Below the pieces are notes generated by a model. That model was not told where the DNA came from. It was given only the letters and a program-made list of their open reading frames with translations, and searched no databases. Of a DNA stretch of 64,000 nt, positions 16,876 through 33,635 are shown in pieces. The position numbers and the translations under genes are program-made. The stretch's first letter is position 1. Each line of letters opens with the position of its first letter. The stretch is from Bacilli bacterium (GTDB taxonomy: Bacteria > Bacillota_I > Bacilli_A > RF39 > UBA660): the NCBI GenBank assembly GCA_045627525.1, contig JAZQNW010000002.1, positions 102,304 to 166,303 on the forward strand, in the 5' to 3' direction.

Positions 16876-17580
16876 TTATATTGCATATAAGTAAATACTA
16901 AAAAATTGTAATACTGCACCTATTAATACAAATACATGAAATACTGAATGGATATATTTTTTCTTTGCTCCTACTAAATAAAATAGAGCTCCTAATGTAT
17001 AGGCTACACCACCAGAAACTAATAGTATTAATCCATTAACTGGTAGTAAATTCTTTAATGGTCCAATTGACGCTACTACCATCCAGCCCATTATCAAATA
17101 TAATATGAATGATATTACTTTATATTTTTCTAAATTTATAGCATTTAATATTACTCCAATTATCGCACATCCCCATATAACTCCAAATAATGTCCATCCT
17201 AGAGCACCACCTATTAAACTTATACAAAATGGCGTATAGCACCCAGCTATAAATACATATATATCGCAGTGATCAATTATTCTAAATACTTTTTTTGCTT
17301 TTATTTTTGGACTAAATGAGTGATATAGGCAGCTTATTGTAAACATTATTATCATTGTTGCGCCATATATAGATGAAGCAACAACACCTGCAGGATGATG
17401 ATTTATTGCCGCTCTAACAATTGCTAATACTAATGCTGCTATACCTAGTAACCCACCTATTCCATGTGTTATTGAATTTGTTATTTCTTCGCCCAATGTA
17501 TATTTGGGTATTTTTATTTTTTCCATATTTTCACCTCTTTGATTGTGTTCATTTTTAGTATAATACATAATTTTATTCAT
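16876..17580 (-). CDS. Hemolysin III / PAQR family membrane protein (likely start at 17526)
   Basis: EEITNSITHG, SCLYH, DHCDIYVFIAGCYTP, HSVFHVFV. Confidence 0.9.
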   Translation of the reverse strand: MNKIMYYTKNEHNQRGENMEKIKIPKYTLGEEITNSITHGIGGLLGIAALVLAIVRAAINHHPAGVVASSIYGATMIIMFTISCLYHSFSPKIKAKKVFRIIDHCDIYVFIAGCYTPFCISLIGGALGWTLFGVIWGCAIIGVILNAINLEKYKVISFILYLIMGWMVVASIGPLKNLLPVNGLILLVSGGVAYTLGALFYLVGAKKKYIHSVFHVFVLIGAVLQFFSIYLYAI

Positions 17581-18163
17581 TTATGTAATTGATTATTACT
17601 TTATCATATTTTTCTTTATTAACTTGTATTGACTTATCTACATTAATTATGTAATCTTGCAATGTACATTTTTTCTCTTCATTATAATATTCTTTTATTA
17701 GATTTCCACCAAGAGCAATCATTGTTTTTGCAGATGCTGGATTTTCTTTATCGCAGTCCATAAAAACTTCTTTAATTCCATGTTCTTGACAACATAGTAA
17801 TCCTAAATATAAATTTACCTTATTATATCCTTTGTTTCTCTCAGTTGGTCGAATACTGTAACCTATATGACCGCCAAATTTTTTTAAGCTTTCATTTAAT
17901 GCTAGTCTAATATTAATCATACCTATAATTTTATTATCTGACTCTCTAACTAGGAAAAAAGTTTCTGTAGGAACTCGTTCTTCTGTAACCGGTCTATTTC
18001 TATCTTCTTCTAATTTTTGTAACCATCCATCGTAGTTATTTAAAAACTTATCTAAACTACCTGATCCATTAACTTCTGAATTATATTCATAAAATTCTTT
18101 TATATATTCAATAGCCTGTGATTCATAATCTTTTGTTGGTCTTACATGTTTTAGTATTTCCAT
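17573..18163 (-). CDS. GNAT family acetyltransferase
   Basis: GGHIGYSIRPTERNKGY, CDKENPASAKT. Confidence 0.88.
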   Translation of the reverse strand: MEILKHVRPTKDYESQAIEYIKEFYEYNSEVNGSGSLDKFLNNYDGWLQKLEEDRNRPVTEERVPTETFFLVRESDNKIIGMINIRLALNESLKKFGGHIGYSIRPTERNKGYNKVNLYLGLLCCQEHGIKEVFMDCDKENPASAKTMIALGGNLIKEYYNEEKKCTLQDYIINVDKSIQVNKEKYDKVIINYINE

Positions 18164-18240
18164 ATAATCAACTCCTACATAAATTATATCATACTAATAA
18201 AAAAGATACGATTTTAGATTAAACTTTCATATCTTTTTTA

Positions 18241-18918
18241 TTACTTTATTTTTAAACTTTTTAAATATTCTTTTTGTTCTTCTGTTATTCTATAGCTTTC
18301 TCTGGCTTTTTGAATTGTTTTATTGTGAATCCACTTATCAAGTCTTTTTTCCTCAATATATTTAATTGTATCATCCCATTGTTTTGCTAAGGCTGTAGCA
18401 AAAAACCAAGCTATCATCATTTGAATGTAGTATTCATTTGAATGCACTTTAGCTGGTATATCTAAATATTCTTTTTTGAAGTCATCATCTAGATAATGAC
18501 TCATTAACATTTCAATTCCAAATCTACATGTATATATTTCTTTTGAATTTGACCACTGTCTTATTTTTTTTATTAAGTCAGCTTTATGTTTTTTAAATAC
18601 TTTTGGTGACATGATATCGCATACTGCCCAATTATCTACATATGGTAAAAATTTATCAATTTCTTCAATACATTTATCATAATCTTTTATTTCTGAAATA
18701 AGGAGTCCATGAAGCATATTTTCGTCATAATAATTATGTGGTAATGTTTTTAAAAATTCAAAAATTTCCGGTTCTTTTATATATTTTTTTGCTAATTTTC
18801 TAACTTCAGGAACCCTAACTCCAATGAATTTTTCTTTTGGAATTGTTGGTGTTAATTTACTTTGAAATTCTGCATATTCTTTATCTTGTAATTTTAATAA
18901 TTCATTTAATATTTCCAT
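18241..18918 (-). CDS. DNA alkylation repair protein (AlkD family)
   Basis: GVRVP, VDNWAVCD, EYYIQMMIAWFFATAL. Confidence 0.88.
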   Translation of the reverse strand: MEILNELLKLQDKEYAEFQSKLTPTIPKEKFIGVRVPEVRKLAKKYIKEPEIFEFLKTLPHNYYDENMLHGLLISEIKDYDKCIEEIDKFLPYVDNWAVCDIMSPKVFKKHKADLIKKIRQWSNSKEIYTCRFGIEMLMSHYLDDDFKKEYLDIPAKVHSNEYYIQMMIAWFFATALAKQWDDTIKYIEEKRLDKWIHNKTIQKARESYRITEEQKEYLKSLKIK

Positions 18919-18982
18919 TATATTTACTCCTAGTATACATTTTTTTCATTATTCTTTAATCTAGTTATATTGTTAATTAACA

Positions 18983-19495
18983 TTATATTTTTTCAAAGAA
19001 GTACACATTTTCTGGGAGACCTAATTTTTCAAAAATTCTTTGTTTAGCATATTTCCCACCTAAATGTTTATAAAATTCATTTGATGGATTACCATCTAAA
19101 CATCCAATAATCATTTGATTAAATCCCATCTTTTTTAACTCTTTTATTCCTGCTTGAAATAATTTCTTACCATATCCTTTTCTCTTATATTCATTAATAA
19201 TATAAATAGCATATAGTTCGCCACAATTTGGATATTCTTTTTCTTCTGTTGGACCTACATTTACAAATCCTACCACTTTGTTATCAATTTCAAGTACAAA
19301 TACGTGATTATTATTTTCATCAAAATTGTTATAAGAATTAATAGATCTTAATTCTTCGTTTGTATATAATTCTTTCAAAAAATCATCTGGTACTAGTCCT
19401 TTATATGTTTCATTCCAAGCTGTTGTTACAACTTTGGATATGGCTGAGCAATCGTCTTTTGCTTTTCTTCTTATTACAATTTCTATATAAATCAT
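18983..19495 (-). CDS. GNAT family acetyltransferase
   Basis: AWNETYKGLVP, GELYAIYI, KRKGYG, FYKHLGG. Confidence 0.88.
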   Translation of the reverse strand: MIYIEIVIRRKAKDDCSAISKVVTTAWNETYKGLVPDDFLKELYTNEELRSINSYNNFDENNNHVFVLEIDNKVVGFVNVGPTEEKEYPNCGELYAIYIINEYKRKGYGKKLFQAGIKELKKMGFNQMIIGCLDGNPSNEFYKHLGGKYAKQRIFEKLGLPENVYFFEKI

Positions 19496-19641
19496 CTCCT
19501 ATAATTATTATAACATTTTCACAATTTATTTCGTATAAAAAGGACACATTATACAAAATATAGTATGTCGTTGATTTACATATTATATAATTTTAGTGGT
19601 GGTAGTGTTATCTTCATCCTCACTATAACACTCTAATATAA

Positions 19642-20070
19642 CTAATTTTGCTGGATTAAGTCTAAGTTGCCATTAATAACAATTGGAGCAAATCCTTCTA
19701 TTTCATCAAATAACATTCCTTCTGGAATATCATTATATAAATATATAGTTTTGCCTAATCTAAATGCATCATACATTTCTAAAAATGTTGCTCCACCTAT
19801 GTAATTTTGATATAGTTTACCATCTTTTTCTTTATCTAAATTTAAGACTAACACAGCATCCATTTTTGATATTGTTTCTTCACTTTTCTTATACATTTCT
19901 GATTTAAATTTTTGGTGTTTTTCTTTTCCTAAATCCCACATTCTTTGTTCTGTTTCTGGATCTTCATAACAATTAGGTAGATAAACATCTATGTTTTTAT
20001 TTTCTAATACACTTTTTAATTCTTCTATTTTAGAATAAAAGTTTTTACTACAAATAATTAATATTTTCAT
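19642..20070 (-). CDS. Hypothetical protein, nucleoside 2-deoxyribosyltransferase-like fold
   Basis: DAVLVLN..YIGGATFLEMYDAFRLGK pattern (G...E...A...K). Confidence 0.55.
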   Translation of the reverse strand: MKILIICSKNFYSKIEELKSVLENKNIDVYLPNCYEDPETEQRMWDLGKEKHQKFKSEMYKKSEETISKMDAVLVLNLDKEKDGKLYQNYIGGATFLEMYDAFRLGKTIYLYNDIPEGMLFDEIEGFAPIVINGNLDLIQQN

Positions 20071-20181
20071 TTTTGTCCTCTCTTTTATTTAATACTATAC
20101 CACATAAAAGAGCAAATCAAAAGATTTGCCCTAAATTTATTAAATTAATTATCTATACATAAAATTAAAAATATTAACACA

Positions 20182-20841
20182 TTATTTAGAACTTCCAATT
20201 AAATTAGTATCACCATACACGTAGTCAAATAAATCATATAATTTTCCATCAGTTGTTTGAGCAACGACCGTTTGACCATTTGGAGAAACTGGTCTATCAC
20301 TACTCAATTTAACTAAATATAATTTCTTAACATTTTTTAAATTATTAATCCTATATAGACGGAAACCATATTTTACGTTTCCATTATTATCGCTTTCAAA
20401 TATTTCATATTTTAGATAATCAATATTTCCCTCTTCATCAAGAAATATAACTTTATATTCCTCCATGCCAGGTCCACCTTTATATATTAGTGTTTCCAAA
20501 TACATTTTATAATTATTTGTTAACTCGTATGTAATATTATATGTACTATCATTTACTACATACCCAGTTTCTGTTTTTTGAACAAAACCATTATCATCTT
20601 TTTGATCAATAACGCTATATTTATATGTTTCATCTTTATTATAAATATTATTTTCATTAAATACTAAATCAATGTTTTTTTCTTCTTTAGAATTTTTTTC
20701 TATATTATCAGCAGGTGTGTTGCTTGGAATTGAAACATCTTTTGATAACAATTTATCATATGCGATGTATCCCCCTAAAACAATAATAATTAATACTAAA
20801 ATAACAATAATTGATGATGAGTTTTTCTTCTTTTCTTCCAT
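20182..20841 (-). CDS. Hypothetical membrane-anchored protein
   Basis: MEEKKK start, one TM helix, low-complexity linker. Confidence 0.7.
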   Translation of the reverse strand: MEEKKKNSSSIIVILVLIIIVLGGYIAYDKLLSKDVSIPSNTPADNIEKNSKEEKNIDLVFNENNIYNKDETYKYSVIDQKDDNGFVQKTETGYVVNDSTYNITYELTNNYKMYLETLIYKGGPGMEEYKVIFLDEEGNIDYLKYEIFESDNNGNVKYGFRLYRINNLKNVKKLYLVKLSSDRPVSPNGQTVVAQTTDGKLYDLFDYVYGDTNLIGSSK

Positions 20842-21088
20842 AATAAATATTCCTTTCTATTTTATAATTTAATTATACAACAAAAAAAATAACGCCTACA
20901 TTTTTTTTAATATATTATTATGTTTTTGTATTTAAATACATAATTTTACATGTTTTTAGCATCAATAATTGCAAGTTATTATAATTACTTCTAATATTAA
21001 TGCATGTTCTTTATCATCTTTATATGTTCATATCTCTTACTTTTTTAATTCTGGAAATAAATAATTAATTATAAGCGGTATCTAAAAA

Positions 21089-22012
21089 CTACTTGTTTCC
21101 GACTATTACTTTTCCATCTAAATTACAAATATAGCAATCAGGTAATTTATTTTTAATATAATTTAACATATCTTGATTTTTTTCTATTTGTCTGCCAACA
21201 AAAATACCTTCAATTAACTTAGTTGGCATACCAAACATAATAGCAGATTCTCTATCTGTTGTTGAAGCATTTCTATTAAATCTTTCTTCTAAAAATTTTT
21301 GATAATATCTATAGTCTAAAAATTCTTTTAAACATTCATCTTCAAGTTCAGTATTCCATACATCTGCTTTTGCCATTTCTTTGGCATAATCATTATCCAT
21401 ATTTAAAATAAATGCTATTTGTCTTTTATTCGATACTAAACTTGGAATAAAACGAACCTCTTTTGTCTGTTCTCCAGCAAATGACCAGATATTATCATCA
21501 TCATTTATTTTTTCAGTATATTCATCGAATTTATGGTATGGTACCATTTCACTTTTTAATTTAGAATTAGGTCCTCTGCCGATATTATAAGTTATTGTAA
21601 ATCCACTATATTCATTTATGTAATCTCTTAATAAGCAGTCATCTTTTATATTCCACATTCCAATACTATTCTTTATTTTATTTTTACCTGCTGATGAACC
21701 TGTAAAATCATTACCTATAAATCCATTTTCTAAAATCCAATCAAAGTTATCTAACTTGCCGGGTATTCCATGAATAAAAGTACCTTTTTTCAATACTACA
21801 TCTTGGCCTTTTGTGTACTTATTTTTTGTATTAATTTCTGTTTCATCATAAAATAAATTAATATTTTTTAAGACTAATTCTAGTGCTTTATCTTTAAAAG
21901 TTTGATTTGCGTATGCAATATATTTTTCTTTATTCATAATATCACTGCCTTTTGATATGATTATACCATATTTTTTATAATCTTTATAATAGACTATTAA
22001 TGTTGTAATCAT
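21089..22012 (-). CDS. Hypothetical protein (likely start MNKEK)
   Basis: Long ORF with protein-like composition; FIHG..ILENGF motif. Confidence 0.7.
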   Translation of the reverse strand: MITTLIVYYKDYKKYGIIISKGSDIMNKEKYIAYANQTFKDKALELVLKNINLFYDETEINTKNKYTKGQDVVLKKGTFIHGIPGKLDNFDWILENGFIGNDFTGSSAGKNKIKNSIGMWNIKDDCLLRDYINEYSGFTITYNIGRGPNSKLKSEMVPYHKFDEYTEKINDDDNIWSFAGEQTKEVRFIPSLVSNKRQIAFILNMDNDYAKEMAKADVWNTELEDECLKEFLDYRYYQKFLEERFNRNASTTDRESAIMFGMPTKLIEGIFVGRQIEKNQDMLNYIKNKLPDCYICNLDGKVIVGNK

Positions 22013-22103
22013 TTTGTATACAACGGAGTTTAATTTGGTTTACTAAAAAACATCAAATTAAAAACGAACAAGTTATTTGTTCGTTTTTTAGCGTAGCTTT
22101 ATA

Positions 22104-22544
22104 CTATTTAAATTCAATGCTTGTAATTAAGTTTCCATCACCATTGTAATATTCGATAATAACAGCCTTAGTGTCTGGTGCAATGGTACGAACAGAATCA
22201 AGAACTGAATTAAAAGTGCTTGCTTGATTATTAATAGATGTTTCTAAAGATTCTTTCATAGTTCCAAGAACACTAGCATCGTATGTAGTTTTATAAGTAT
22301 AAACATACACTAAAGAATTATCTTTAGCAACTAAAGTAGCATCTAGTACACTATTAGAAAGATTTTCAACTGCTTCTTTGTTTTCTTCTACAAATTTTTC
22401 TAATTGATTAGTCTTTTCTTCTTTGACAGTACTATCAGTATTAGTAGTATTGTCATTATTATTAGCATTATCCTTTGAAAGACCACATCCAGCAAGAGCA
22501 AAAACAGCTATAACACATACAAAAAGCTTAATAAATTTCTTCAT
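22104..22544 (-). CDS. Lipoprotein (DUF4854-like)
   Basis: Lipobox LAGC; C-terminal EYYNGDG...S.EF. Confidence 0.75.
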   Translation of the reverse strand: MKKFIKLFVCVIAVFALAGCGLSKDNANNNDNTTNTDSTVKEEKTNQLEKFVEENKEAVENLSNSVLDATLVAKDNSLVYVYTYKTTYDASVLGTMKESLETSINNQASTFNSVLDSVRTIAPDTKAVIIEYYNGDGNLITSIEFK

Positions 22545-22611
22545 ACTTCTATACTCCTTCCTATTTTTTTCAGTATATCATGGATATTGTTCTTTTTCAA
22601 GGTGCTTAAAA

Positions 22612-22924
22612 GATATCTAATTTTCTTTCAACTAATAAATCTTAAACTTCTTTTTTGCTAGTAAATTTATCCTTTTCTGTAGCTGTTAAATACACTTTGA
22701 TTAAGTCTTCAATATTTGATATTACGCTTTTATCAAAATTATCTTTAGTGCATATCCATGTAGACCTGTTTTTTGATTCCCTACAAATTATATAATTTTT
22801 TTCGTCATTATATAATTCCAATTCTGGACTTGATAAATCACCTAAAATTAGATGGAATTTATATTTATCTTTTTGAAACTCTGCTGATTTAAATATATCA
22901 TTACTTTGAATCTATTTTTTTCAT
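22612..22924 (-). pseudogene. Frameshifted, truncated gene remnant
   Basis: MKKIDSK-stop, then a shifted open frame NDIFKSAEFQKDKYKFHLILGDLSSPELELYNDEKNYIICR..KKEV-stop-DLLVERK; own promoter (TGGTATAAT) upstream. Confidence 0.6.
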
Positions 22925-23053
22925 AATATCAACTACAATCTTGCTCTAATTATACCATATTAATGAAAAAGATACCCTTCATTATCTAAAAGGCCCTAAA
23001 AATGACTATTGGTAAAATATTTTCATAATATTTCAAACTCTTATTTATCTTTT

Positions 23054-23617
23054 TTAATTAATCTTCGTTAATGTAAAATTTGAATCAAAGAATACTGAAC
23101 CATATCCACCAACAATTTTAGAGCAGTCATCTGATATACTTAAAAATGAGAAATATTTTTCTGAACAATCAGATTCAGGACCACAAGTAGATGGAGCATC
23201 TTTTAATAATAGAGCATTTTCTATTATAGTATAGTGTCCAACCCAATATTGTTCGATACCACTTTTTGTTAATTTATAAGTACCATCTTCTTTTAAATCA
23301 ACAGTTATTGTTCCATTTACATTTTGCCCAGTTCTAGCATCTTGATAAATAGCTCCTTCACCACTATACGTTCCTATACAACTTCTTGTCTCAATGGTAT
23401 TGTTTTTTTCATTTGCTGTTTCTGTCTTAATTTGCGTTTCCTCTTTTTCAATTTTCTCTGTTGGTTCTTTCTTTTCAGCATCCGATATTGTTGCTCTTTC
23501 TTTAGACATTATTTTATCTTTGTTGACAAAGATAAATGCTCCCATTCCTACACATGCTATTAATAAAATAACTATAAGTACAACTAATCCTACATTACTC
23601 TTTTTCTTTTCTTCCAT
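23054..23617 (-). CDS. Hypothetical membrane-anchored protein
   Basis: MEEKKK start, one TM helix, Cys-containing beta-rich ectodomain. Confidence 0.7.
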   Translation of the reverse strand: MEEKKKSNVGLVVLIVILLIACVGMGAFIFVNKDKIMSKERATISDAEKKEPTEKIEKEETQIKTETANEKNNTIETRSCIGTYSGEGAIYQDARTGQNVNGTITVDLKEDGTYKLTKSGIEQYWVGHYTIIENALLLKDAPSTCGPESDCSEKYFSFLSISDDCSKIVGGYGSVFFDSNFTLTKIN

Positions 23618-23760
23618 TTAGATTACTCCTTTCTATTATATTTTGATTATATCATAGTTTTCTATCTTTGAATTAAAAAAAGACTTTTTCAAGTCTTTTA
23701 AATGCCTCTCTTATTCTTCCTTAAAATTATTTTCATATTCCCACAAAGTCTTGTAATTGC

Positions 23761-23805
23761 TTACTTTCCGCAACACGCCTTATACTTTTTACCTGAACCA
23801 CATGC
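23761..23805 (-). repeat. Displaced secA 3'-tail copy T4 (att-like site)
   Basis: gca tgt ggt tca ggt aaa aag tat aag gcg tgt tgc gga aag taa = ACGSGKKYKACCGK*. Confidence 0.92.
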
Positions 23806-24073
23806 AACAGCTAATACTGTCACACATTGTATTTTTATTCGTTAAATTCCCTTATTTAATGGCTTTTTGGTATATATTTTATACTTATTACCCTATTTTA
23901 GTAAATTGCTTACATAGGCTTATTTTATGCCTAATACTGGCTATTTAGCAAAGAAACTTTATATCATTTTGTCCACATCCAATGAGTTGCTATTCACTAA
24001 AAAAGACAATGTTACTACTATCTCTATAATTACTTCAAATATATTATTTTCTACATATTGAAATAATGCGTAA

Positions 24074-24970
24074 TTAGTTTTTTTTCTTAAATCTATTTTC
24101 AATTACAAAAATACTAATTAATATAATAATTGATATTATCATAATAATATACATTGTATTCATGTTAACACTATTATTAAAAAATTTTAAATTACAATCT
24201 AACGAATCTTTTATTCCATTAATAACTTCATTAGAAACACCATTATTAGATAATTCTTTTAACGATGCAGACATTGCATGATTTTTTATTAATGAAGTTC
24301 CATATGTGCCTGGCAAAAAAGATAAAACTTTTTGTAATCCAATATTAAATGAAGATATTGGCATATATGCTCCACATATAAAACCATATCCAGCACTGAC
24401 CATAGTTCCAACAGCAGATACTTGTCCTTGACTCTTTAATCTAAAATTAATAACAGATGATAAAGCACAACCAAATAAAGTTAAAATCACTATATCTAAT
24501 ATTAATAACAATATATCAGATACTCCATAAAACCACCCTTGAGTATATGTGTAAATTAAACATAATACTAAAGCTACTATATTTACAATAATTGTTGATA
24601 TAAATGATGCAAAGAAATAAGATAAACTTTTAATCCCATTACTTATTGGTGATATATCTATATCTTTTGCAGGACCATTAACTTTATCAGTTACCATTAA
24701 TAAATTAGAAGTAAAAGCCACTGTAATACAGCTTACAGCTAATAATGAAGATAATATCTCACCACTGACTAATGAATGTATTATTTTATTAGATATATTT
24801 AATTCTTCAGGAATAGCACTTATGAAACTATCTTCAAATATACCACCTAAAAATGAAGCATATAAAACTAATAGAATAGCAGGAGTAATTAGTGAAGTGA
24901 TAAACATTGATTTATCGCTAAAATAAACTTTAATATTTCTTAATGTTAAATTAATAAATTTTTTCATCAT
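24074..24970 (-). CDS. ABC-2 type permease
   Basis: RNIKVYFSDK, DKVNG...D..ISP, GFICGAYMP, PGTYG. Confidence 0.85.
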   Translation of the reverse strand: MMKKFINLTLRNIKVYFSDKSMFITSLITPAILLVLYASFLGGIFEDSFISAIPEELNISNKIIHSLVSGEILSSLLAVSCITVAFTSNLLMVTDKVNGPAKDIDISPISNGIKSLSYFFASFISTIIVNIVALVLCLIYTYTQGWFYGVSDILLLILDIVILTLFGCALSSVINFRLKSQGQVSAVGTMVSAGYGFICGAYMPISSFNIGLQKVLSFLPGTYGTSLIKNHAMSASLKELSNNGVSNEVINGIKDSLDCNLKFFNNSVNMNTMYIIMIISIIILISIFVIENRFKKKN

Positions 24971-25884
24971 TCTGCCTCCAATTTATAACCTGTTGCTTCT
25001 AGGAACACATCATCCATATTTCCTTTAATTATTTCATAATCTTGAAATACTTCTTTATTCTTTACTATTAAATTTGTTGCTTCTTTAGACGATTTAATAT
25101 TTAATTTATAAGAATTCTTTATCTTTTTATATGGTAAATTTAATTTCTTAACTAACTCTTCATCAGTATTATATAAATAAATTACATCTGATGCATATTT
25201 ATTTTTTAAATCAATTGAAGTACCTTCTGCAACTATTTTTCCTCTATCTAATATAACAATATAATCTGCATCTGTTGTTTCTTCCATATAATGTGTTGTT
25301 AAAAATATCGTCATTTTATAATCTTTTCTTAATTTTTCAATAATAGTCCAAATTTTTTTTCTAGTTCCTGGATCTAATCCTGTTGTTGGTTCATCTAATA
25401 TTAATATTTCAGGTTTATGAATTATAGATCTTGCTATATCTACCTTTCTTCTTTGTCCACCTGATAACTTACCAAGTTGTTGATTCTTAATATTCTTTAA
25501 TTCGAACAATTTATCTAATTCATTAAATCTATTAACAAAATCATTACCAACTATTCCATATAAGCCTGCTCTATACTTTAAATTTTCATAAACAGATAAT
25601 GATTTATCTAATACTGTATCTTGAAATACAACACCTATTAAATGTTTTATTTTACCAATATCAGTTGATACATCATATCCACATACATTAATAGAACCTT
25701 TATCAATATTAAGATTTCCACAAATCATACCAATTGTAGTAGATTTACCAGCACCATTAATGCCTAAAAAAGCAAACAATTCACCTTTCTTTACTTTAAA
25801 ATTCAAACCATTAACAGCTTTAACATCTCCAAACGATTTATATAAATTATTTATTTTAATTATATCATCCATATAACTCACCAT
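24967..25884 (-). CDS. ABC transporter ATP-binding protein
   Basis: GINGAGKST, LSGGQRR, ILDEPTTGLDP, TTHYMEE. Confidence 0.92.
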   Translation of the reverse strand: MVSYMDDIIKINNLYKSFGDVKAVNGLNFKVKKGELFAFLGINGAGKSTTIGMICGNLNIDKGSINVCGYDVSTDIGKIKHLIGVVFQDTVLDKSLSVYENLKYRAGLYGIVGNDFVNRFNELDKLFELKNIKNQQLGKLSGGQRRKVDIARSIIHKPEILILDEPTTGLDPGTRKKIWTIIEKLRKDYKMTIFLTTHYMEETTDADYIVILDRGKIVAEGTSIDLKNKYASDVIYLYNTDEELVKKLNLPYKKIKNSYKLNIKSSKEATNLIVKNKEVFQDYEIIKGNMDDVFLEATGYKLEAE

Positions 25885-25993
25885 CCATCAACAATTATAC
25901 ACTAAAAAAAGTATTTACCTATACCTTCTCATAAATTAGTTATTGCGCATTATTCCTTAAAAAACGAATCTAATCGCTAAATTGTAATTTGTT

Positions 25994-26710
25994 TTATTCT
26001 TTAACCTTTTTATTTATATAACATGAATAAATAAAAGGAACAATAATTAATACTATTGGTGCAATGTATAGTGAAATTGTGTTTTCAATATTAAATATTG
26101 ATGTTGCATTAATTACGATATGTGTCACAATACACGGAATAAGTGATTTACTTTTATAAAAAATAGTAACAAATAAATAACCAAGTGAAACTGCATAACA
26201 TATTTGTATTAAAGTTGGTATTAAGTCTGCACCATTTAATAAGTTAACTATATGGCCTATTCCAAATGTTAATGAACTTACAATAATTGCACTTTTTACA
26301 TTATCTTTAGCCATCATTTTAAATAGAAATCCTCTAAAAATTATTTCTTCAATAAACCCAACATTAATCATAGTTAAAATATGAAATATTATTTCAGAAG
26401 TTGATTTATTTAAATTAAACCCATTCCATAAATTTACACTTACTATTAAGAATAACGGAACAAAATATAAATATTCTTTTATATTATTAATTTTTCTTAA
26501 TCCATAGTACTCAATTCTTTTTAAAACAATCATAGTCCAAATCAAAACAAATGATAATATAGTATTTATAATAAAACTTATTAAACTCGCATAACCATAG
26601 TTTTGCATACAATATGAATTAACAAATACATATGCTATTATTAAAAGAATACAAAATAAAGTCTCATTTTTTTCAAATTTTTGTTTCATAAACAATCCTC
26701 CATTTAACAA
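25994..26710 (-). CDS. CPBP (CAAX/Abi) intramembrane metalloprotease
   Basis: EEIIFRG, FGIGH, H...N motifs. Confidence 0.88.
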   Translation of the reverse strand: MLNGGLFMKQKFEKNETLFCILLIIAYVFVNSYCMQNYGYASLISFIINTILSFVLIWTMIVLKRIEYYGLRKINNIKEYLYFVPLFLIVSVNLWNGFNLNKSTSEIIFHILTMINVGFIEEIIFRGFLFKMMAKDNVKSAIIVSSLTFGIGHIVNLLNGADLIPTLIQICYAVSLGYLFVTIFYKSKSLIPCIVTHIVINATSIFNIENTISLYIAPIVLIIVPFIYSCYINKKVKE

Positions 26711-26877
26711 GTTACTATTTATCTTTCTCTTACACCTATATTATACAACAAAAAAGATGGAATATTTCATCCACCTTTAAATAGCACCTTATTTTCCCTT
26801 AATTAAATCATCGGATCTAATTCGGATCTAAAGTCATATTTTTAATTTTTAAAATCTTCGTAAAGCCTTATATTTTC

Positions 26878-26922
26878 TTATTTTCCGCAGCATACCTTAT
26901 ACTTCTTTCCCGATCCACATGG
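26878..26922 (-). repeat. Displaced secA 3'-tail copy T3 (att-like site)
   Basis: cca tgt gga tcg gga aag aag tat aag gta tgc tgc gga aaa taa = PCGSGKKYKVCCGK*. Confidence 0.93.
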
Positions 26923-27187
26923 CTTTTTTATTTGGTCAATTCTACTCCATTTAATAGCATTTAACCGCCATTTCTCTTTAAAAAAGTTATATAGCTCACT
27001 TCTGTTCACTGTGGATTTTGTAGTAGAACTTATCTAAAAACTTATCCAAAAATCATTTTATTTTGCTTAATTCATTAATCATTCCAAATATATTTTTATA
27101 TGATACTGGTAGAATCTAGGAAAACAGACATTTTTATTTTATATTTTCCTACATTTTTATATCAGCTTTAAAATACGCCTTATAATT

Positions 27188-27751
27188 CTACTGATTTTTT
27201 TTATATTGAACCCCATCAATAATTACATATTCTCTATCATCACTAAATTCTATATTAAAATAATTAGGCACCTGTTGACTCGGAGCTAAATATTTTTTTA
27301 TATCTACTGAAATTTCATTCTCAGAAACAATATTTTCTAAATTAATATCACCTTGATAATATTTGCATAACACATAAGAATCAATTGGATATTTGTTGTA
27401 ATCAAATCCTATTATTTCCTCAATAGTTTCTAATTGATTAGTTTCTGGATTTATAAAATCCAATATTGCTTTATATTCAGGATTGTCATTTTCATATGAT
27501 CCTGTAGTTTGAATATCTCTAACTATTCCGTAACATTCAATACCATATTTTTTTGTTTTTCTATCCTTTATTATTTTTCTTAAACCACTAATTAACAGAT
27601 ATAATCCAATAACTTCAAATAGAATAAAAATGATAAATAGAAATGGATCCATGTCCACTCCACCTCTTTGCTCACCAGGAACAATCAAGCACATAATAAA
27701 TATTGGTGTTATAATACTTGTCCATACAAGTCCAAATTTAAATTTAAACAT
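27188..27751 (-). CDS. Hypothetical membrane protein (two TM helices plus DUF3592-like beta domain)
   Basis: Two N-terminal TMs, KKYGIECYGIV, soluble C-terminus. Confidence 0.65.
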   Translation of the reverse strand: MFKFKFGLVWTSIITPIFIMCLIVPGEQRGGVDMDPFLFIIFILFEVIGLYLLISGLRKIIKDRKTKKYGIECYGIVRDIQTTGSYENDNPEYKAILDFINPETNQLETIEEIIGFDYNKYPIDSYVLCKYYQGDINLENIVSENEISVDIKKYLAPSQQVPNYFNIEFSDDREYVIIDGVQYKKNQ

Positions 27752-27881
27752 ATCTTATACTCCTTTTTATACTATTTTATATACAATATTCTTTTATCAT
27801 AAAAAGCTTATCTAAAACTTATCTAAATGCAATTTTTTTCGTCTTTTTATTTTTTACATCTTTGCAAACCCTTGTAATTGC

Positions 27882-27926
27882 TTACTTTCCGCAACATTGT
27901 TTGTACTTTTTACCACTTCCACATGG
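27882..27926 (-). repeat. Displaced secA 3'-tail copy T2 (att-like site)
   Basis: cca tgt gga agt ggt aaa aag tac aaa caa tgt tgc gga aag taa = PCGSGKKYKQCCGK*. Confidence 0.94.
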
Positions 27927-28090
27927 TGTTAGGAAAGTTCCATTTTGGTTCGATTTAGCCAGTCAAACTTGCTATAAAGTTCGTCTTGGCTCGTCAAAGT
28001 AGCCTCAAACTTCGTTTTGGCACGATGGGTAAATTTTCAAAACGTATCTAAAATCGTATCTATCATATTATTTCGTTTTTGATTTCGTAT

Positions 28091-29020
28091 CTAATATTTA
28101 TTTGTTAAAGTACGATGATATAACATTTTCATTTTTGATTTATCTTGTCCAAGAAGCCAGATATAATCATTTATATCTATTCTTGAAATTTTATTATTAA
28201 GTTTATTTGCAATATAGTTAATTACAACAATATCATTCGCTCTAATTTCAATTTCCATTTTAGAATCTTTTTCTATTTCTATCTTATTATCAACTAAATT
28301 GGCTAATTCATCATTAAATTCTAAAATCCCATAACATCTCATTACTTGAGGTATTTTATAATCTGCACATCCTGCTAAATTCGAATAATCTACTTCGACA
28401 TTTTCTAATTTTTCTCTTACATGTAATATATCAGATGTAAGTAGTTGTGCTCTTTTGTAAAAATATACTTTGTAATTTGAGTATTCGCTTTCATCCTCGA
28501 AATAAGGAAACTTATCTATTATATAATTAAATAACTCATTATCCTTTGTATATTGTTCAATTAAAGAATAAAAATCATTTTGCTGTAAGATTTTATTCAT
28601 CTCAACTAAATTATCAAATCTGTCATCAAATAATGGGATTTCAGTATTGCCTTTTAATAACTTTCTAAATTCTTCTTTAGACATATTAAATTGGTTACCA
28701 TTTTTAATATTGTTTAAAACAATATACATCATTGCATAAGATCCATCTAATTTACCTACATCTGAATCAATTTCCCATTTTGGTTCTCCCCAAAAACAAT
28801 AATCCCCAATTGTGTGATAAACAATTAGAAAATTAATGATTGTTCTACAATCTGACTCCAAAATATTAAATGGATTCGTATCTAACCAATATCTTATTTT
28901 TGATATATCCAGATTATCAATCACTCTATCTAATACTTCAAAATTAATTTTGACATACTTAGATTCTTCACTTACCTTTTTGCATGATTCTATTACATTA
29001 CTCAATATATTTTTGCTCAT
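28091..29020 (-). CDS. Queuosine salvage family protein (Qng1/DUF2419-like N-glycosylase)
   Basis: FYKRAQLL..D, ADYKIPQVMR..GIL, EIEIRA, DYIWLLG, HRT...Y motifs. Confidence 0.85.
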   Translation of the reverse strand: MSKNILSNVIESCKKVSEESKYVKINFEVLDRVIDNLDISKIRYWLDTNPFNILESDCRTIINFLIVYHTIGDYCFWGEPKWEIDSDVGKLDGSYAMMYIVLNNIKNGNQFNMSKEEFRKLLKGNTEIPLFDDRFDNLVEMNKILQQNDFYSLIEQYTKDNELFNYIIDKFPYFEDESEYSNYKVYFYKRAQLLTSDILHVREKLENVEVDYSNLAGCADYKIPQVMRCYGILEFNDELANLVDNKIEIEKDSKMEIEIRANDIVVINYIANKLNNKISRIDINDYIWLLGQDKSKMKMLYHRTLTNKY

Positions 29021-29150
29021 AACAGACCTCCAAAATAATTATACCATATTAATAAAAAAGATACGATTTTGGTACTAAAATATCGTATCTAATGGTACTT
29101 TTTTACCATTTTTTGAATCTTATAAATCTTCGAAAAGCCTTATTTTATCG

Positions 29151-29195
29151 CTATTTTCCGCAACAGTTCTTATATTTCTTACCACTTCCACATGG
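29151..29195 (-). repeat. Displaced secA 3'-tail copy T1 (att-like site)
   Basis: cca tgt gga agt ggt aag aaa tat aag aac tgt tgc gga aaa tag = PCGSGKKYKNCCGK*. Confidence 0.94.
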
Positions 29196-29260
29196 ATGCG
29201 ATTTTTCGAACTCCCGAGGCTATAGTTGGCTTTAAAACCTTTATAAAACCTCATAATTTC

Positions 29261-29322
29261 ACGTTTGAGAACGTTTGAGAACTTCTGAGAACGCTACCAA
29301 AACGTATGTAAAAACGTATGTG
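29261..29322 (+). repeat. 10-bp tandem repeats plus 12-bp direct repeat pair (putative recombination arm)
   Basis: ACGTTTGAGA x2 + ACTTCTGAGA, then AAAACGTATGTA / AAAACGTATGTG. Confidence 0.8.
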
Positions 29323-29333
29323 AAATTCAAAAA

Positions 29334-30116
29334 CTAATTTTTCTTATTCTGCAGTTGTTTCACAAGTTTTCTAAATTGTTTGTCTATTCTAGATATCTGA
29401 TACTTATATTTTTCACAGGTAATAAAACATAAAAATTTTTCTATACATTTAAACATTTCATAACTTGCTATAATTAAATTTTCATCAAAATTAGTATAAG
29501 AAAAACTTAAATATGTTACTTTATCATCTTCTCCAAGTTGTAGTTTTTCCACTAATGACCCTATACCATAATGAGTATCTTGTGAAAGGAGTGAGTATTG
29601 TTTTTCATATTCTGATTTTAGTGAGCTATTATTTGCCCAAGATTCAATGCTCATTTTTTTATTTTCATAGTTATCAAAATCATAATCTTCTTTATTTATT
29701 TTATCAATTAAATCATCATACCAATTATTCTTATTATCCAAAATTTGTTTAGCCCAATATGTTGAATAATATTCTTGCTCTGCTACAACTTTATTATAAT
29801 TTCTTTTATTTTTTATAACAGCAAACAGTTTAAATTTTTTTTCATAAAATGTCCTTAAAAGTACACGGTAATCAGAAACTAATCCTCGTTCTAATAATAA
29901 TATTTCTGACGAATAAGTAGTATAGCAGTCATAAATTGTACATATTATATATTTTTCCCTATCATTAGTATATTTTTTACAATCCTCATCATTCATAATT
30001 TTATCAATTAATTCAATTATTGAAAAAACCAATTTATATTGCTCTGTATGTTTCTTTCTAAAATTATTAACTAATAAATAGGCATTATTATCTAAAAAAT
30101 CGTATTGAATATTCAT
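29334..30116 (-). CDS. DUF5677-like helical protein
   Basis: LLRTFYE and Y..LS..TH motifs. Confidence 0.55.
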   Translation of the reverse strand: MNIQYDFLDNNAYLLVNNFRKKHTEQYKLVFSIIELIDKIMNDEDCKKYTNDREKYIICTIYDCYTTYSSEILLLERGLVSDYRVLLRTFYEKKFKLFAVIKNKRNYNKVVAEQEYYSTYWAKQILDNKNNWYDDLIDKINKEDYDFDNYENKKMSIESWANNSSLKSEYEKQYSLLSQDTHYGIGSLVEKLQLGEDDKVTYLSFSYTNFDENLIIASYEMFKCIEKFLCFITCEKYKYQISRIDKQFRKLVKQLQNKKN

Positions 30117-30155
30117 TTAACCACTACCTCCATTTTTAAATTACATATACTTTTT

Positions 30156-30908
30156 TTAATGTTTTTGGGTATATTTACATTTAGGATAATTAGAACATCC
30201 AATAAATTTACCATACTTACTCTCTCGTCCAACTAACATTCCACCGCATTTAGGACATTTGTTAGTATCACTTCTCTCAATATTGCTTTTTATATTTTCA
30301 ATGTGTTCTTTTTTTATCTTTCTATCTTTTACATTGCTTTCAATCAATTGTTTATATAATTCATTGGCATTATTAATTATCTCTTCATCATATGACATTA
30401 TTTTATCAACAATAGTATCATACCTAACAAGTTCTCCATCATGTTCTATTTTTAATTTTGCCTTGCTTGGAATACAAACTATATTATTAATTTTTGATTC
30501 ATCTACATTTAATAATTCAGCTAATGCTTTGCAATGGCCATAGTTTTGCCTAATAGGATTTGTATAATAATAATTATTTTTACCAGCATGCCTTATCCAA
30601 TTTTTATCATATTTACTTCCTGTTATGTAACCATTATACTGTTTTGTCTCTATGGAAAATATTCCATATGGAGAAATAATTACGTGATCTATTTGATGAG
30701 TTAATCCATTAACTGATATAAACAAATTATTTATAATTTTATATTTGGCTTTAGGTAATTTACTTAAGGATTTTTTAGTCCAATGTTCACCAAACCACCC
30801 AATAATTTGTTTATAAAAAATTGCAGACATTAGTCCCAAAACTAATATTGATATTATTAATGGATTAGTTAGATAATATTTTAAAAATTCTTTAGTAAAA
30901 TCTGACAT
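30156..30908 (-). CDS. NERD nuclease-related domain protein with topoisomerase-type zinc ribbon
   Basis: N-terminal TM, GE, QIDHVIISPYGIFSIETK, NPIRQN, CPKCGG..GKFIGCSNYPKC. Confidence 0.88.
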   Translation of the reverse strand: MSDFTKEFLKYYLTNPLIISILVLGLMSAIFYKQIIGWFGEHWTKKSLSKLPKAKYKIINNLFISVNGLTHQIDHVIISPYGIFSIETKQYNGYITGSKYDKNWIRHAGKNNYYYTNPIRQNYGHCKALAELLNVDESKINNIVCIPSKAKLKIEHDGELVRYDTIVDKIMSYDEEIINNANELYKQLIESNVKDRKIKKEHIENIKSNIERSDTNKCPKCGGMLVGRESKYGKFIGCSNYPKCKYTQKH

Positions 30909-31103
30909 AATTACACGCTCTTTTCATTAATATTATATCATGAATTTTTATATTCTTTGTCTTGAACTATGGTGGCAGTGATCATTTCCTTCTGGAACCC
31001 TTATAAATAAAGGCTTTATAAGTTCCAAAATACTGGCTACATACGTTTTACATACGTATGTGGAGGCACTTTTTGAAGAAAAATTACAACTTTTTAGAAA
31101 AAT

Positions 31104-31137
31104 AAAAAGCCTGGAAACTCTTATATTTCCTGGCTTT
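31104..31137 (-). terminator. secA intrinsic terminator
   Basis: AAAGCC(t)GGAAA..TTTCC(t)GGCTTT inverted repeat with minus-strand U-tract. Confidence 0.7.
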
Positions 31138-31142
31138 ACAAG

Positions 31143-33635
31143 TTATTTACCACAACATTGTTTATATTTCTTACCACTGCCACATGGGCATGGTTCATTT
31201 CTACCTATTTTGTTAGTTCTTTTTGGGGCTTTTTTTGATTTTTCTTCGCTTTCATTTGTTATTTGTTTTTTTGCTACTACTTTTCTTTCAATATTTTGTC
31301 TTATTTCTGCTTTTATTAAGAATATAGAAACATCTTTATCAATCTTTTGTAGCATTGAATCAAATAAGTCATATCCTTCTGTTGTATATGCTCTTAATGG
31401 ATCTTCTTGGGCATATCCTCTTAAATGAATTCCTTCTCTTAGATGTGACATTGTATTAATGTGTTCCATCCAGTAATTATCAACTACTTGTAACATAATT
31501 ACTTTTTCAAATTCATTAGCTATTTCTTGTGGAATATCTTTTAATTTTTCTTCGTATTCTTCAATTACTAATTTTGAGATTGTATCTATTACTTCTTCAT
31601 TACTCATATTTGTAATATCAGATTTTTTTATATCTTTTTTTAGTAAGTTTTCATTAGTGAAATCAACTATTTCTTGTAAATCATCATCTGTTAATAATCC
31701 TTCTGGCGCTATATGTGAATTTACTAAGTCTTCTATATGATGTCTAAATGAATTAATTACCATTTCATGAATTGATTCACTATCTAAAATAGTATTTCTT
31801 TTTTCATAAATTATTTCTCGATGATTATTCATTACATCATCATATTGTAATAATTGTTTACGTATATCAAAGTTATTTCCTTCAACTCTTTTTTGAGCTG
31901 TCCCAATTGATTTTGTAAATGTTTTGCTTTGAATAGCTTGTTCTCCTAACCCCATGTTACTCATCATTGTTCCAATTCTATCTGAACCAAATCTTACCAT
32001 TAGATCGTCCTTCATAGACACAAAGAATTGAGTAAACCCTGGGTCACCTTGTCGTCCTGAACGTCCTCTTAACTGATTATCAATACGGCGTGATTCATGT
32101 CGTTCTGTACCAACTACACATAAACCACCTATTTCTCTTATTTCATCTGATAATTTAATATCTGTACCACGACCAGCCATATTAGTTGCGATTGTTACTG
32201 ATTTATGTTGACCAATTTTTGAAATTATTTCTGCCTCACGCGCATGATTTTTTGCATTTAATACTTCGTGTGGAACACGAGCTTGTGTTAATAGTCTACT
32301 AATTAATTCACTGGTTTCAATAGCTATTGTACCTATTAATACGGGTTGTCCTTTAGCATATTTTTCTTTAACAAAATTTATAATAGCTTTATATTTTGCT
32401 TCTTTTGTTGCATAAACCATATCTGGAGCATCAATACGAGCTATTGGTCTATTTGTTGGTATTTCAATAACATACATATTATATATGTTTCTAAATTCTT
32501 CTTCTTCAGTCTTTGCTGTACCAGTCATACCTGATAATTTTTTGTACATTCTGAATAAATTTTGGAAAGTGATAGTAGCAAGAGTTTTTGTTTCCTGATT
32601 GATGTTAACTCCTTCTTTTGCTTCTATTGCTTGATGTAAGCCATCAGAATATGCTCTACCTTTCATTAAACGACCTGTAAATTGATCTACTATTACTACT
32701 TCTCCTTCTTGAACAACATAGTCAACGTCTTTTTTCATTGAATAGTTAGCTCTTAATGCTTGATTAATGTAATGAAGAAGTGATGCATTTTCTATGTCAT
32801 ATAAATTCTTTATATTAAAATTGCTTTCAGCTTTATCTGATCCAGATTCTGTTAAATTAACACTTTTAGTTTTTTCATCATATATATAATCTTTTTCTAT
32901 TTTTAAACTCTTAGCGAATCTATCAGCATCAATATATAAATTAGCACTATGCATTTGCCCACCAGAAATTATTAATGGTGTTCTTGCTTCATCTATTAAG
33001 ACTGAATCAACTTCATCAATGATAGCAAAGTTTAATGGTCGTTGAACTCTTTCTTCTTTATGTACAACCATATTGTCTCTTAAATAATCGAAACCTATTT
33101 CATTATTTGTAGAATATAGGATATCGCAATTGTAAGCATCTTGTTTTTCTTTTGGACTTAAATCTCTCATATTAACTCCAACAGTTAATCCAAGAAATTC
33201 ATGAATTTTTCCCATCCATTCTGCATCACGTGTTGCTAGATATTCATTTACAGTAATAATATGTACACCTTTTCCTGTTAATGCATTTAAATAAGCTGGT
33301 AATACACTTGTTAAAGTTTTACCTTCACCAGTTTTCATTTCAGCAATATTACCATAATGTATTGCTAAACCACCTAGTATTTGAACATAGAAATGTTTTT
33401 CACCAATTACACGATAAGCTGCCTCTCTTGCAGTTGCAAAAGCTTCTACTAAAATATCATCTAATGTTTCACCATTGTTTAATCTTTCTTTAAATTGTTC
33501 TGTTTTACTTTGTAATTCAGTATCTGTTAATTTAGAATATTCTTCATCTAAGGCTATTACTTTATCTGCTATTTCTTTGAATTTTTTTAATTCTTTATAT
33601 TCGTGATCTAATAACTTTTTTAAAAGTTTCATCAT
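31143..33635 (-). CDS. secA: Preprotein translocase subunit SecA
   Basis: EMKTGEGKT, DEVDS, TNMAGRGTDI, RIDNQLRGRSGRQGDPG, SEC-C tail CPCGSGKKYKQCCGK. Confidence 0.98.
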   Translation of the reverse strand: MMKLLKKLLDHEYKELKKFKEIADKVIALDEEYSKLTDTELQSKTEQFKERLNNGETLDDILVEAFATAREAAYRVIGEKHFYVQILGGLAIHYGNIAEMKTGEGKTLTSVLPAYLNALTGKGVHIITVNEYLATRDAEWMGKIHEFLGLTVGVNMRDLSPKEKQDAYNCDILYSTNNEIGFDYLRDNMVVHKEERVQRPLNFAIIDEVDSVLIDEARTPLIISGGQMHSANLYIDADRFAKSLKIEKDYIYDEKTKSVNLTESGSDKAESNFNIKNLYDIENASLLHYINQALRANYSMKKDVDYVVQEGEVVIVDQFTGRLMKGRAYSDGLHQAIEAKEGVNINQETKTLATITFQNLFRMYKKLSGMTGTAKTEEEEFRNIYNMYVIEIPTNRPIARIDAPDMVYATKEAKYKAIINFVKEKYAKGQPVLIGTIAIETSELISRLLTQARVPHEVLNAKNHAREAEIISKIGQHKSVTIATNMAGRGTDIKLSDEIREIGGLCVVGTERHESRRIDNQLRGRSGRQGDPGFTQFFVSMKDDLMVRFGSDRIGTMMSNMGLGEQAIQSKTFTKSIGTAQKRVEGNNFDIRKQLLQYDDVMNNHREIIYEKRNTILDSESIHEMVINSFRHHIEDLVNSHIAPEGLLTDDDLQEIVDFTNENLLKKDIKKSDITNMSNEEVIDTISKLVIEEYEEKLKDIPQEIANEFEKVIMLQVVDNYWMEHINTMSHLREGIHLRGYAQEDPLRAYTTEGYDLFDSMLQKIDKDVSIFLIKAEIRQNIERKVVAKKQITNESEEKSKKAPKRTNKIGRNEPCPCGSGKKYKQCCGK

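Follow-up and report, generated by a model that had tools for sequence, protein, structure and literature searches.

The 3′ end of secA is an attachment site shared by temperate phages, elements resembling ICEs (integrative and conjugative elements), and IMEs (integrative and mobilizable elements) within the Bacilli family that includes the genome analyzed here. In a 64,000-nt stretch of this genome (GCA_045627525.1, contig JAZQNW010000002.1, positions 102,304–166,303; hereafter the window), the site holds a stack of four integrase-free units, each bounded by copies of the last 15 codons of secA (the SEC-C tail). The shared bacterial attachment site (attB) and the stack are both real, and the locus is richer than the earlier note on this DNA, a first reading of the sequence, had proposed. 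We consider it probable, at roughly three chances in four, that the units (cassettes 1–4, numbered from secA) are stacked, non-autonomous mini-elements resembling cis-mobilizable elements (CIMEs), which borrow the integrases of phages, ICEs, and IMEs at the shared secA attB.

Displaced secA tails in the window

A repeat search of the window recovers a 44-nt family of five direct copies (Table 1), 75–100% identical to the reference copy and spaced tail to tail, in order of increasing coordinate, by 3117, 1004, 1269, and 1992 bp. A degenerate tail pattern matches the window exactly five times (0.00 expected from 100 shuffles) and has no match elsewhere in the 1.15-Mb, 18-contig host genome. On the minus strand all five copies translate as (P/A)CGSGKKYKxCCGK-stop, with Ala-Cys replacing Pro-Cys in the copy at 23761. 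The copy at 31143 is the sole one with secA sequence upstream of it; the product of secA has 86–89% identical homologues in genomes of the same genus. Similarity among the tails ends upstream at CC(A/T)-TGTGG, and approximately 39 nt past the stop codon are also common to the four displaced copies (83-nt repeat family). The present last 15 codons of secA probably arrived with cassette 1.

The four units encode no integrase detectable by Pfam or by tblastn with three integrase types, and relaxase/oriT-type IME genes are absent from them by Pfam. These results bear out the observations from which the earlier note had started, namely that the 15 terminal codons of secA occur five times on one strand, units of the lengths given above, displaced tails without upstream secA sequence, and four units with the gene content listed in Table 1 and no recombinase. 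RNA folding of the sequence behind the five tails gives a terminator-like hairpin with a T-run behind tail 1 (folding energy −13.7 kcal/mol, z −2.0) and, approximately 60–85 nt behind tail 5, another hairpin with a T-run, with no convincing terminator behind tails 2–4; the idea that each cassette brings its own terminator was dropped, the fold being convincing behind tail 1 only.

Integrases at secA tails in relatives

Among 301 genomes of the family, homologues of the 421-aa integrase of G227 (type A) are found in 59 at E ≤ 1e-20, many of them split or interrupted by stop codons. At 24 of the 30 best loci, a same-strand tail lies 210–290 nt upstream of the integrase gene; the other six comprise one locus cut by the contig end, one in which the tail follows the integrase gene downstream, and four without a tail. 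The last five form a subgroup at 43–47% identity, the integrase gene of which lies at the far end of the unit in some arrays. In G017, the interval between two tails holds a truncated integrase gene directly behind secA, a full-length one (420 aa), a Mob_Pre relaxase gene, and type I restriction-modification methylase and specificity genes. Elements of at least 20 kb stand behind secA in G160 and G239; with ParA/ParB-like proteins and a 2367-aa protein (N-terminal motifs, judged by eye), they look ICE-like.

Phages use the same site. Exact AGATACG or AGATAAG dimers, the arm motifs of cassettes 2 and 3 (see below), occur in six IMG/VR contigs, five of which contain a secA tail, or the core sequence downstream of it, then the dimer, then a convergent gene for an integrase of 373–387 aa; a repressor-like gene and replication genes such as that for SSB are also present (assigned by eye). 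One of these five, a 35,139-bp contig that CheckV rates 100% complete, has a tail at both ends, and the dimer at its far end stands at −133 relative to the second tail, a placement also seen in the cassettes. The integrases of the AGATACG and AGATAAG phages are 52% identical to each other. Integrases similar to these (type C-like) occur in 93 of the 301 genomes, with a secA tail at one of the 24 best loci; the others, which carry other phased dimers, presumably use other sites. Viral-contig searches with the type C integrase, as a single protein and as an alignment, yielded just one new relative, at 44% identity and without a tail.

At loci away from secA (L139–L141, L144, L150, L153, L156–L159, and L161), related phage integrases are accompanied by phased dimers of other motifs just behind their 3′ ends (AGATCCA, GAGCCAT, ACCACTTATT, TATGTAAC, and TCAACCA). 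The arm-dimer design is general in this phage integrase family.

The 3′ tail of secA is a real attachment site, and at least three groups of tyrosine integrase use it: those of temperate phages (gene convergent with secA), those of ICE-like or IME elements (gene directly behind the tail), and those encoded at the far end of their element. The earlier note had proposed that the tail is an attB, where an incoming element substitutes its own tail and displaces the existing one downstream, and had suggested looking in relatives for a tyrosine recombinase beside a secA tail. Integrases at tails and a phage bounded by two tails substantiate the former; the latter is found at the 24 type A loci, in G017, and in the phage contigs.

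Arm sites and matching cassette ends

The order of sequence elements at the type A loci is constant: the tail, a short conserved stretch (ATAAAATAAGGGTTTGCGAGG-like), a single site, and an 11-nt-phased dimer at approximately +100 to +125, followed by approximately 60 nt in which a small CCTTATAAAATAAGG-like palindrome lies, then by the site in inverted copies, a hairpin, and the integrase gene. The dimer motif varies by integrase group, with about ten types among the 24 type A loci (GTTTGTAAA, GTGTGCA, GTCTACA, GTTCGCA, GTCCACA, GTGCACA, GACCACA, GTCCTC, and GTTCCC) and at least 12 overall. In all arrays, a proximal dimer stands at approximately +90 to +135 and a distal dimer at approximately −125 to −160. 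These arm repeats are predicted to bind the integrase.

Integrase-free cassettes have the same layout. In seven of them, from four genera, the first 230–310 nt are 78–89% identical and hold the tail, hairpin, forward dimer, palindrome, and inverted dimer, and the cargo beyond is different or unrelated. The two ends of a cassette also tend to match: at least 10 identical nt are shared between the ends in 30 of the 34 cassettes with dimers at both, compared with a shuffled mean of 9.1 (sd 2.1, maximum 15; 500 shuffles), in a test that overstates significance, the genomes and cassettes being related and non-independent. Matching was scored as the longest common substring on both strands, with distal arms shuffled among cassettes and one duplicate cassette dropped; an earlier metric, a shared exact 7-mer (22 of 33 vs. 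10.1 shuffled), was too crude and was replaced. In the window, cassettes 1 (ACATACG), 2 (AGATACG), and 3 (AGATAAG) have matching dimers at both ends.

The CCTTATAAAATAAGG-like palindrome recurs just past the tail stop codon and between the forward and inverted dimers, in both integrase-bearing elements (L072–L101) and integrase-free cassettes (first 310 nt of L058, L062, L059, and L068). The last 150 nt before a tail often contain several ATAATACT-like repeats or an outward TGnTATAAT-like box (distal arms of L040, L057, L059, and L070; L166); speculatively, these might be outward promoters that restore downstream expression.

Integrase-free cassettes shared across genera

The first cassettes of G222 and G055, both integrase-free, are identical over 962 of 962 nt, in different genera with secA genes only 69.6% identical; the identity starts and stops at CCTTGTGGAAGTGG in both flanking tails, and the next cassettes differ. 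Cassette 2 of G181 and cassette 3 of G062 are 95.8% identical over 712 nt (secA 74%). Relatives of a cassette with a 160-aa open reading frame (ORF) occupy array positions 1, 1, 3, and 4 in four genera, at 81–100% identity. In the genus of the window, G013 corresponds to G014 plus one 871-bp NTPase_I-T cassette inserted tail to tail, which is also present in G010 and, with its second tail decayed (8 bits), in G007. Whole integrase-free cassettes have thus spread horizontally, and their sharing across genera fits site-specific movement of integrase-free units better than it fits independent decay.

Additionally, homologues (approximately 86%) of the NERD gene of cassette 1 are found in 40 metagenome contigs, with tails in 24 of the 34 analyzed; the tail follows approximately 120 nt after the NERD gene, and the ACATACG distal dimer is kept. 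In a contig read closely, the NERD gene lies behind a RhuM-type gene (or its 3′ copy), not before a DUF5677 gene.

Tail arrays downstream of secA

The codon-level tail pattern is found in 255 of the 301 genomes (reversed control pattern: 0). By hand count, approximately 115 genomes have at least two matches and 30 have at least three on one strand; a second match might be another protein with the same ending, and in every fetched array the matches are same-strand tails behind secA. Of 17 regions fetched from downstream of secA, eight have at least two tails by regular expression and nine by a tail profile at ≥25 bits. A further 16 regions, chosen for having at least two tails, contain arrays of 2 to 8 tails, the longest in G053. 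Comparison of these arrays shows that cassette number and order vary among relatives, as the earlier note had expected. Of 41 related genomes, 40 have SecA itself, with many of the contigs stopping within approximately 1 kb past the gene (G010, G011, G008, G021, G003, G020, G009, and G004), which fits strain-level variation or repeats that break assemblies.

The 58 closed cassettes in 34 loci have a median length of 1757 bp (range 719–10,821 bp), and 123 of their 134 ORFs are co-oriented with secA. An integrase match is absent from 51 cassettes, full-length in two, and split or truncated in five, and the 34 array loci contain no fragment of a phage-type (type C) integrase at E ≤ 0.01. A Pfam tally of 86 ORFs from integrase-free cassettes is led by GNAT acetyltransferases (nine), ABC ATPases (three), and NTPase_I-T (three), followed by RhuM, DNA methylases, Q_salvage, and Peptidase_S51 (two each), and also includes class I and class II aminoacyl-tRNA synthetases, AbiEii, a CfrBI-type endonuclease, AsnA, and one IS110 transposase; there are no phage structural families among its top 25 Pfam families. 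PADLOC returns methyltransferase and candidate-system matches for cassette cargo. In one locus (L038, oriented 799–1992), an IS110-family transposase gene, in reverse orientation, interrupts the proximal arm of a cassette encoding a methyltransferase; G014 and G006 have this cassette intact.

Origin of the integrase-free units

On the CIME-like reading, each element carries its own tail copy between arm-type sites, with 11-bp-phased dimers approximately 110 nt after the tail and approximately 130 nt before the next one. Crossover near the 5′ end of the tail would give secA the tail of the element and move the old tail downstream, and repeated integration would produce stacked units. The window units are then minimal versions: in each, one to three cargo genes accompany a tail and a proximal arm, and cassettes 1–3 alone have a matching distal arm as well. 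The cassettes most likely moved as small circles, cut and pasted by a matching integrase from a co-resident or incoming phage, ICE, or IME; because the host genome holds no matching integrase, the array would now be at rest. From the matched arm sites, and because identical integrase-free cassettes occur in distant genera, we infer mobilization by a recombinase supplied in trans; excision as circles is likewise a prediction from sequence. A broader proposal, that this is a true cassette system in which minimal units circulate among genera of small-genome gut Bacilli via borrowed phage or ICE integrases, each keyed by its arm motif, and that it is a major route of gene gain, is tentative, and we would give it slightly less than an even chance.

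Besides the non-independence of the cassettes noted above, several points weigh against the CIME-like reading. Cassette 4 has no matching distal dimer in the arm-dimer search and is possibly a composite unit, and three of the four cassettes with mismatched arms hold integrase genes or fragments and look composite. No integrase-bearing element with ACATACG or AGATCCG arms was found among the type A loci and viral contigs; the exact cassette 1 dimer and the exact 12-nt-period distal AGATACG dimer of cassette 2 each have 0 matches in viral contigs, and phage counterparts exist only for the AGATACG (11-nt period) and AGATAAG types. The tyrosine recombinases of the host genome (94% complete) are XerD (337.8 bits, above the cut-off) and a XerC-like protein (320 bits, just below it) only, both encoded on other contigs. 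Its only serine recombinase, a large one, is encoded far from the array, approximately 110 kb from secA on the same contig (G000:C2:20366–20818, a 514-aa open frame, outside the window). The identity between the G181 and G062 cassettes begins approximately 30 nt deeper in the first tail than that between G222 and G055. Synteny between 23 near-identical NERD contigs and one reference breaks away from the tails, at +351 nt after the tail, at the start of the distal arm, and inside a gene copy. Finally, decay is real, as the five split or truncated integrases among the 58 cassettes, the composite units, and vestigial arms attest.

Under decay in place alone, the units would be immobile remnants of separate phage, ICE, or IME insertions reduced to att ends and a few cargo genes. 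N-terminal integrase stubs right behind tails in several genomes, the mismatched arms of composite cassettes, the tail-less vestigial arms downstream of the last tail of the window, and the decayed second tail of the G007 NTPase cassette would all be expected, and such an origin is the one published for CIMEs (PMC5704250). We nevertheless regard decay alone as unlikely. It is hard to reconcile with a 962-bp integrase-free unit that is 100% identical from tail to tail beside different neighbours and dissimilar secA genes, with the lack of any integrase trace in 51 of the 58 cassettes and of a phage-type trace in all of them, with the matching ends of 30 of the 34 cassettes, or with proximal arms that remain 78–89% identical between cassettes with unrelated cargo.

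Homologous recombination could also act alone, with tails and arms as portable homology and cassettes swapped after DNA uptake without a site-specific recombinase. The arms common to different cassettes are 230–350 nt long, and the boundary inside the tail differs between the two pairs of shared cassettes. The 720-bp cassette of the second pair (L061 ~4650–4794, L062 ~8110–8252, oriented) ends in both genera with approximately 110 nt of secA coding sequence of foreign origin, similar to the secA of a third genus, which hints at an imprecise or differently placed crossover. The earlier note had tied variation to breakpoints at the tails; this holds in three same-genus comparisons and fails in the near-identical metagenome contigs (L174 and 22 others, within L168–L191), where cargo modules are rearranged and the breaks fall at arm/cargo borders and inside a duplicated RhuM-type 3′ end. 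With breaks at these places, it follows that shared arms also undergo homologous recombination, which reshuffles cargo. As the sole process it is improbable and was rejected: the left flank (secA) of the 100% identical cassette is only ~70% identical, the shared edge of 14 nt per side is too short for ordinary homologous recombination, and neither the same motif at both cassette ends, among at least 12 types, nor the use of one site by complete phages and ICE-like integrase elements would be explained.

Movement by host XerC/XerD, as when elements exploit Xer at dif or as in the pdif modules on plasmids of Acinetobacter, would suit a 94%-complete genome in which XerD and the XerC-like protein are the only tyrosine recombinases. 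This has very little probability and was also rejected: the arm architecture is that of elements with their own arm-binding integrases, no dif-like inverted XerC/XerD half-sites were noticed on reading the tail (no formal dif search of the host was made), and all the tails are direct repeats, whereas pdif sites of Acinetobacter plasmids alternate in orientation. That the repeats are an artefact of metagenome assembly was dismissed: the host genome is a metagenome-assembled genome (MAG) of 18 contigs and the contigs of many relatives end just past secA, but the repeats are just 45–85 nt long and 75–86% alike with unique sequence between them, and the same architecture recurs in dozens of independent assemblies, among them IMG/VR contigs, the G160 genome (assembled as one contig), and 24 of the 34 metagenome contigs analyzed. 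Non-autonomous, CIME-like units served by borrowed integrases thus remain the preferred explanation for the stack.

Comparison with known systems

The closest described system is that of CIMEs and of elements that accrete in tandem where a gene ends (3′), known from streptococcal IMEs and from ICESt1/ICESt3 in Streptococcus thermophilus (PMC5704250). Like CIMEs as presented there, the window units have on either side an attL/attR site containing a duplicate of the target gene's end (five tails; matched arms in cassettes 1–3) and lack integration and transfer genes; related integrase-bearing elements (ICE-like elements, IMEs, and prophages) occupy the same att site with the same arm architecture, and units stand in tandem with, or next to, such relatives, the integrase genes of which decay. 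The arrays differ from the described CIMEs in the secA target, the array size, the tiny units, and the several integrase groups. The term secA is absent from that review (PMC5704250); the secA arrays have up to 8 tails, with units from 719 bp upward (median 1757 bp) that often hold one gene; 123 of 134 ORFs are co-oriented and 51 of 58 units have no integrase match; and at least three integrase groups, including those of temperate phages, act at one site, with identical mini-units across genera. Naming of secA as an attB or integration site was not found in the full-text literature, a scope that leaves out most subscription papers and all supplementary files; the passages seen that contain secA concern a neighbouring locus or SecA2 only.

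The earlier note had likened the locus to an integron, an analogy that holds for the layout and fails for the mechanism. As in integrons, a fixed chromosomal site has an array of small cassettes, co-oriented and each with one or a few genes, in variable number and order, and the cargo is rich in GNAT acetyltransferases, with a restriction-modification methylase and AbiE-type genes. Unlike integrons, there is no IntI-type resident integrase adjoining the secA array and no attI; boundaries are direct coding-tail repeats with phased arm sites (attL/attR) rather than folding attC inverted repeats; the recombinases, of at least three groups, are phage/ICE-type integrases with predicted arm-binding N-termini, not IntI; and the cassettes may bring their own promoters, as suggested by −10-like boxes seen by eye before cargo genes.

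The att sites themselves resemble those of the lambda/Tn916 type, with phased direct repeats in both arms, a short core, and an integrase gene next to one arm; a weak Arm-DNA-bind_4 match and a SAM-like N-terminal domain are found as well, integration takes place where a conserved gene ends (3′), for which end the element brings a replacement, and the arm repeats (predicted arm sites) differ in step with the integrase group. They are unlike that type in the very fine diversification of arm motifs (at least 12 types), which is mirrored by non-autonomous units. Phage satellites are likewise small, possibly helper-dependent elements at the site of the helper, but the secA cassettes lack packaging, replication, and regulatory genes and have only att ends in common with phages. 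The window units differ from IMEs in having neither their own integrase nor relaxase/oriT, both an integrase and Mob_Pre being encoded in the relative G017, and the cassettes are unlike prophage remnants in the lack of type C integrase fragments (34 loci) and of phage structural families (top 25 Pfam).

Cargo of the window and adjoining genes

The cassettes and tails of the window are listed in Table 1. The 187-aa protein of cassette 3 has two hydrophobic segments at its N-terminus, judged by eye. For the NERD protein of cassette 1, PADLOC gives a weak PglW-domain match only, and cassette 1 was not called as a known defence system. Homologues of the queuosine-salvage gene of cassette 2 are flanked by tails in one of 24 other loci examined (L115, with a different arm type) and are ordinary chromosomal genes in 23 of 24 other genomes. 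A promoter and terminator consensus scan of 23600–31300, uninformative in such AT-rich DNA, gives 56 promoter-like sites (69.3 shuffled) and two terminators (1.2 shuffled).

Beyond tail 5, the segment 17573–23760 is probably an older, decayed portion of the island. Its genes include GNAT-like, DNA-alkylation-repair-like, and deoxyribosyltransferase-like ones (translations, by eye) and one with a Pfam match to DUF4854, and two of them occur as cargo of cassettes in G018 and G084. Tail-less vestigial pieces of arms lie at 18164–18240, 21066–21088, and 22923–22981 (repeat families and intergenic sequence).

Table 1. Features of the secA tail array in the window (coordinates are window positions; 44-nt copies are members of the repeat family)
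Feature	Content	Coordinates	Strand	Evidence
secA	Target gene, 830 aa	31143–33635	−	ORF
Tail 1	SEC-C tail now fused to secA; attL core	31143–31187	−	Repeat (44-nt copy 31144–31187), pattern match
Cassette 1	NERD/Zn_ribbon_Top1 protein (30156–30908), DUF5677 protein (29334–30116)	29196–31142	−	Pfam
Cassette 1 arms	ACATACG-type repeats	31039–31056 (proximal), 29303–29321 (distal)		Dimer search
Tail 2	Displaced SEC-C tail; attR/attL core, border of cassettes 1 and 2	29151–29195	−	Repeat (44-nt copy 29152–29195), pattern, profile 41 bits
Cassette 2	Queuosine-salvage (Q_salvage) protein (28091–29020)	27927–29150	−	Pfam
Cassette 2 arms	AGATACG; palindromic pair (proximal), phased dimer (distal)	~29059–29091 (proximal), 28043–28062 (distal)
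Tail 3	Displaced SEC-C tail	27882–27926	−	Repeat (44-nt copy 27883–27926), pattern, profile 41 bits
Cassette 3	187-aa membrane protein without family (27188–27751)	26923–27881	−	No Pfam match
Cassette 3 arms	AGATAAG dimers	27807–27825 (proximal), ~27027–27049 (distal)
Tail 4	Displaced SEC-C tail	26878–26922	−	Repeat (44-nt copy 26879–26922), pattern, profile 31 bits
Cassette 4	Rce1-like CPBP protease (25994–26710), ABC ATPase (24967–25884), ABC-2 permease (24074–24970)	23806–26877	−	Pfam
Cassette 4 arm	AGATCCG dimer	26812–26830 (proximal only)
Tail 5	Last recognisable displaced tail (Ala-Cys)	23761–23805	−	Repeat (44-nt copy 23762–23805), pattern, profile 33 bits
Probable decayed part of island	Eight small co-oriented accessory genes	17573–23760	−

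Significance

Members of this family of Bacilli have genomes of 0.8–1.6 Mb and are known almost only from metagenomes. Because approximately 115 of the 301 genomes carry at least one extra tail, the secA tail site may be one of the main places at which the family gains accessory genes, typically genes for GNAT acetyltransferases, transporters, salvage of nucleotides and queuosine, additional aminoacyl-tRNA synthetases, restriction-modification, and abortive infection. The site would also explain the frequent assembly breaks just past secA, and the tail pattern provides a simple finder for mobile cargo and prophage borders in such MAGs. Furthermore, the arrays offer a natural experiment in which the arm specificity of integrases diversifies and non-autonomous DNA tracks along with it. 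If the cassettes do form a true cassette system, phages and ICEs would be driving a counterpart of the integron, one by which these reduced genomes gain genes on a major scale.

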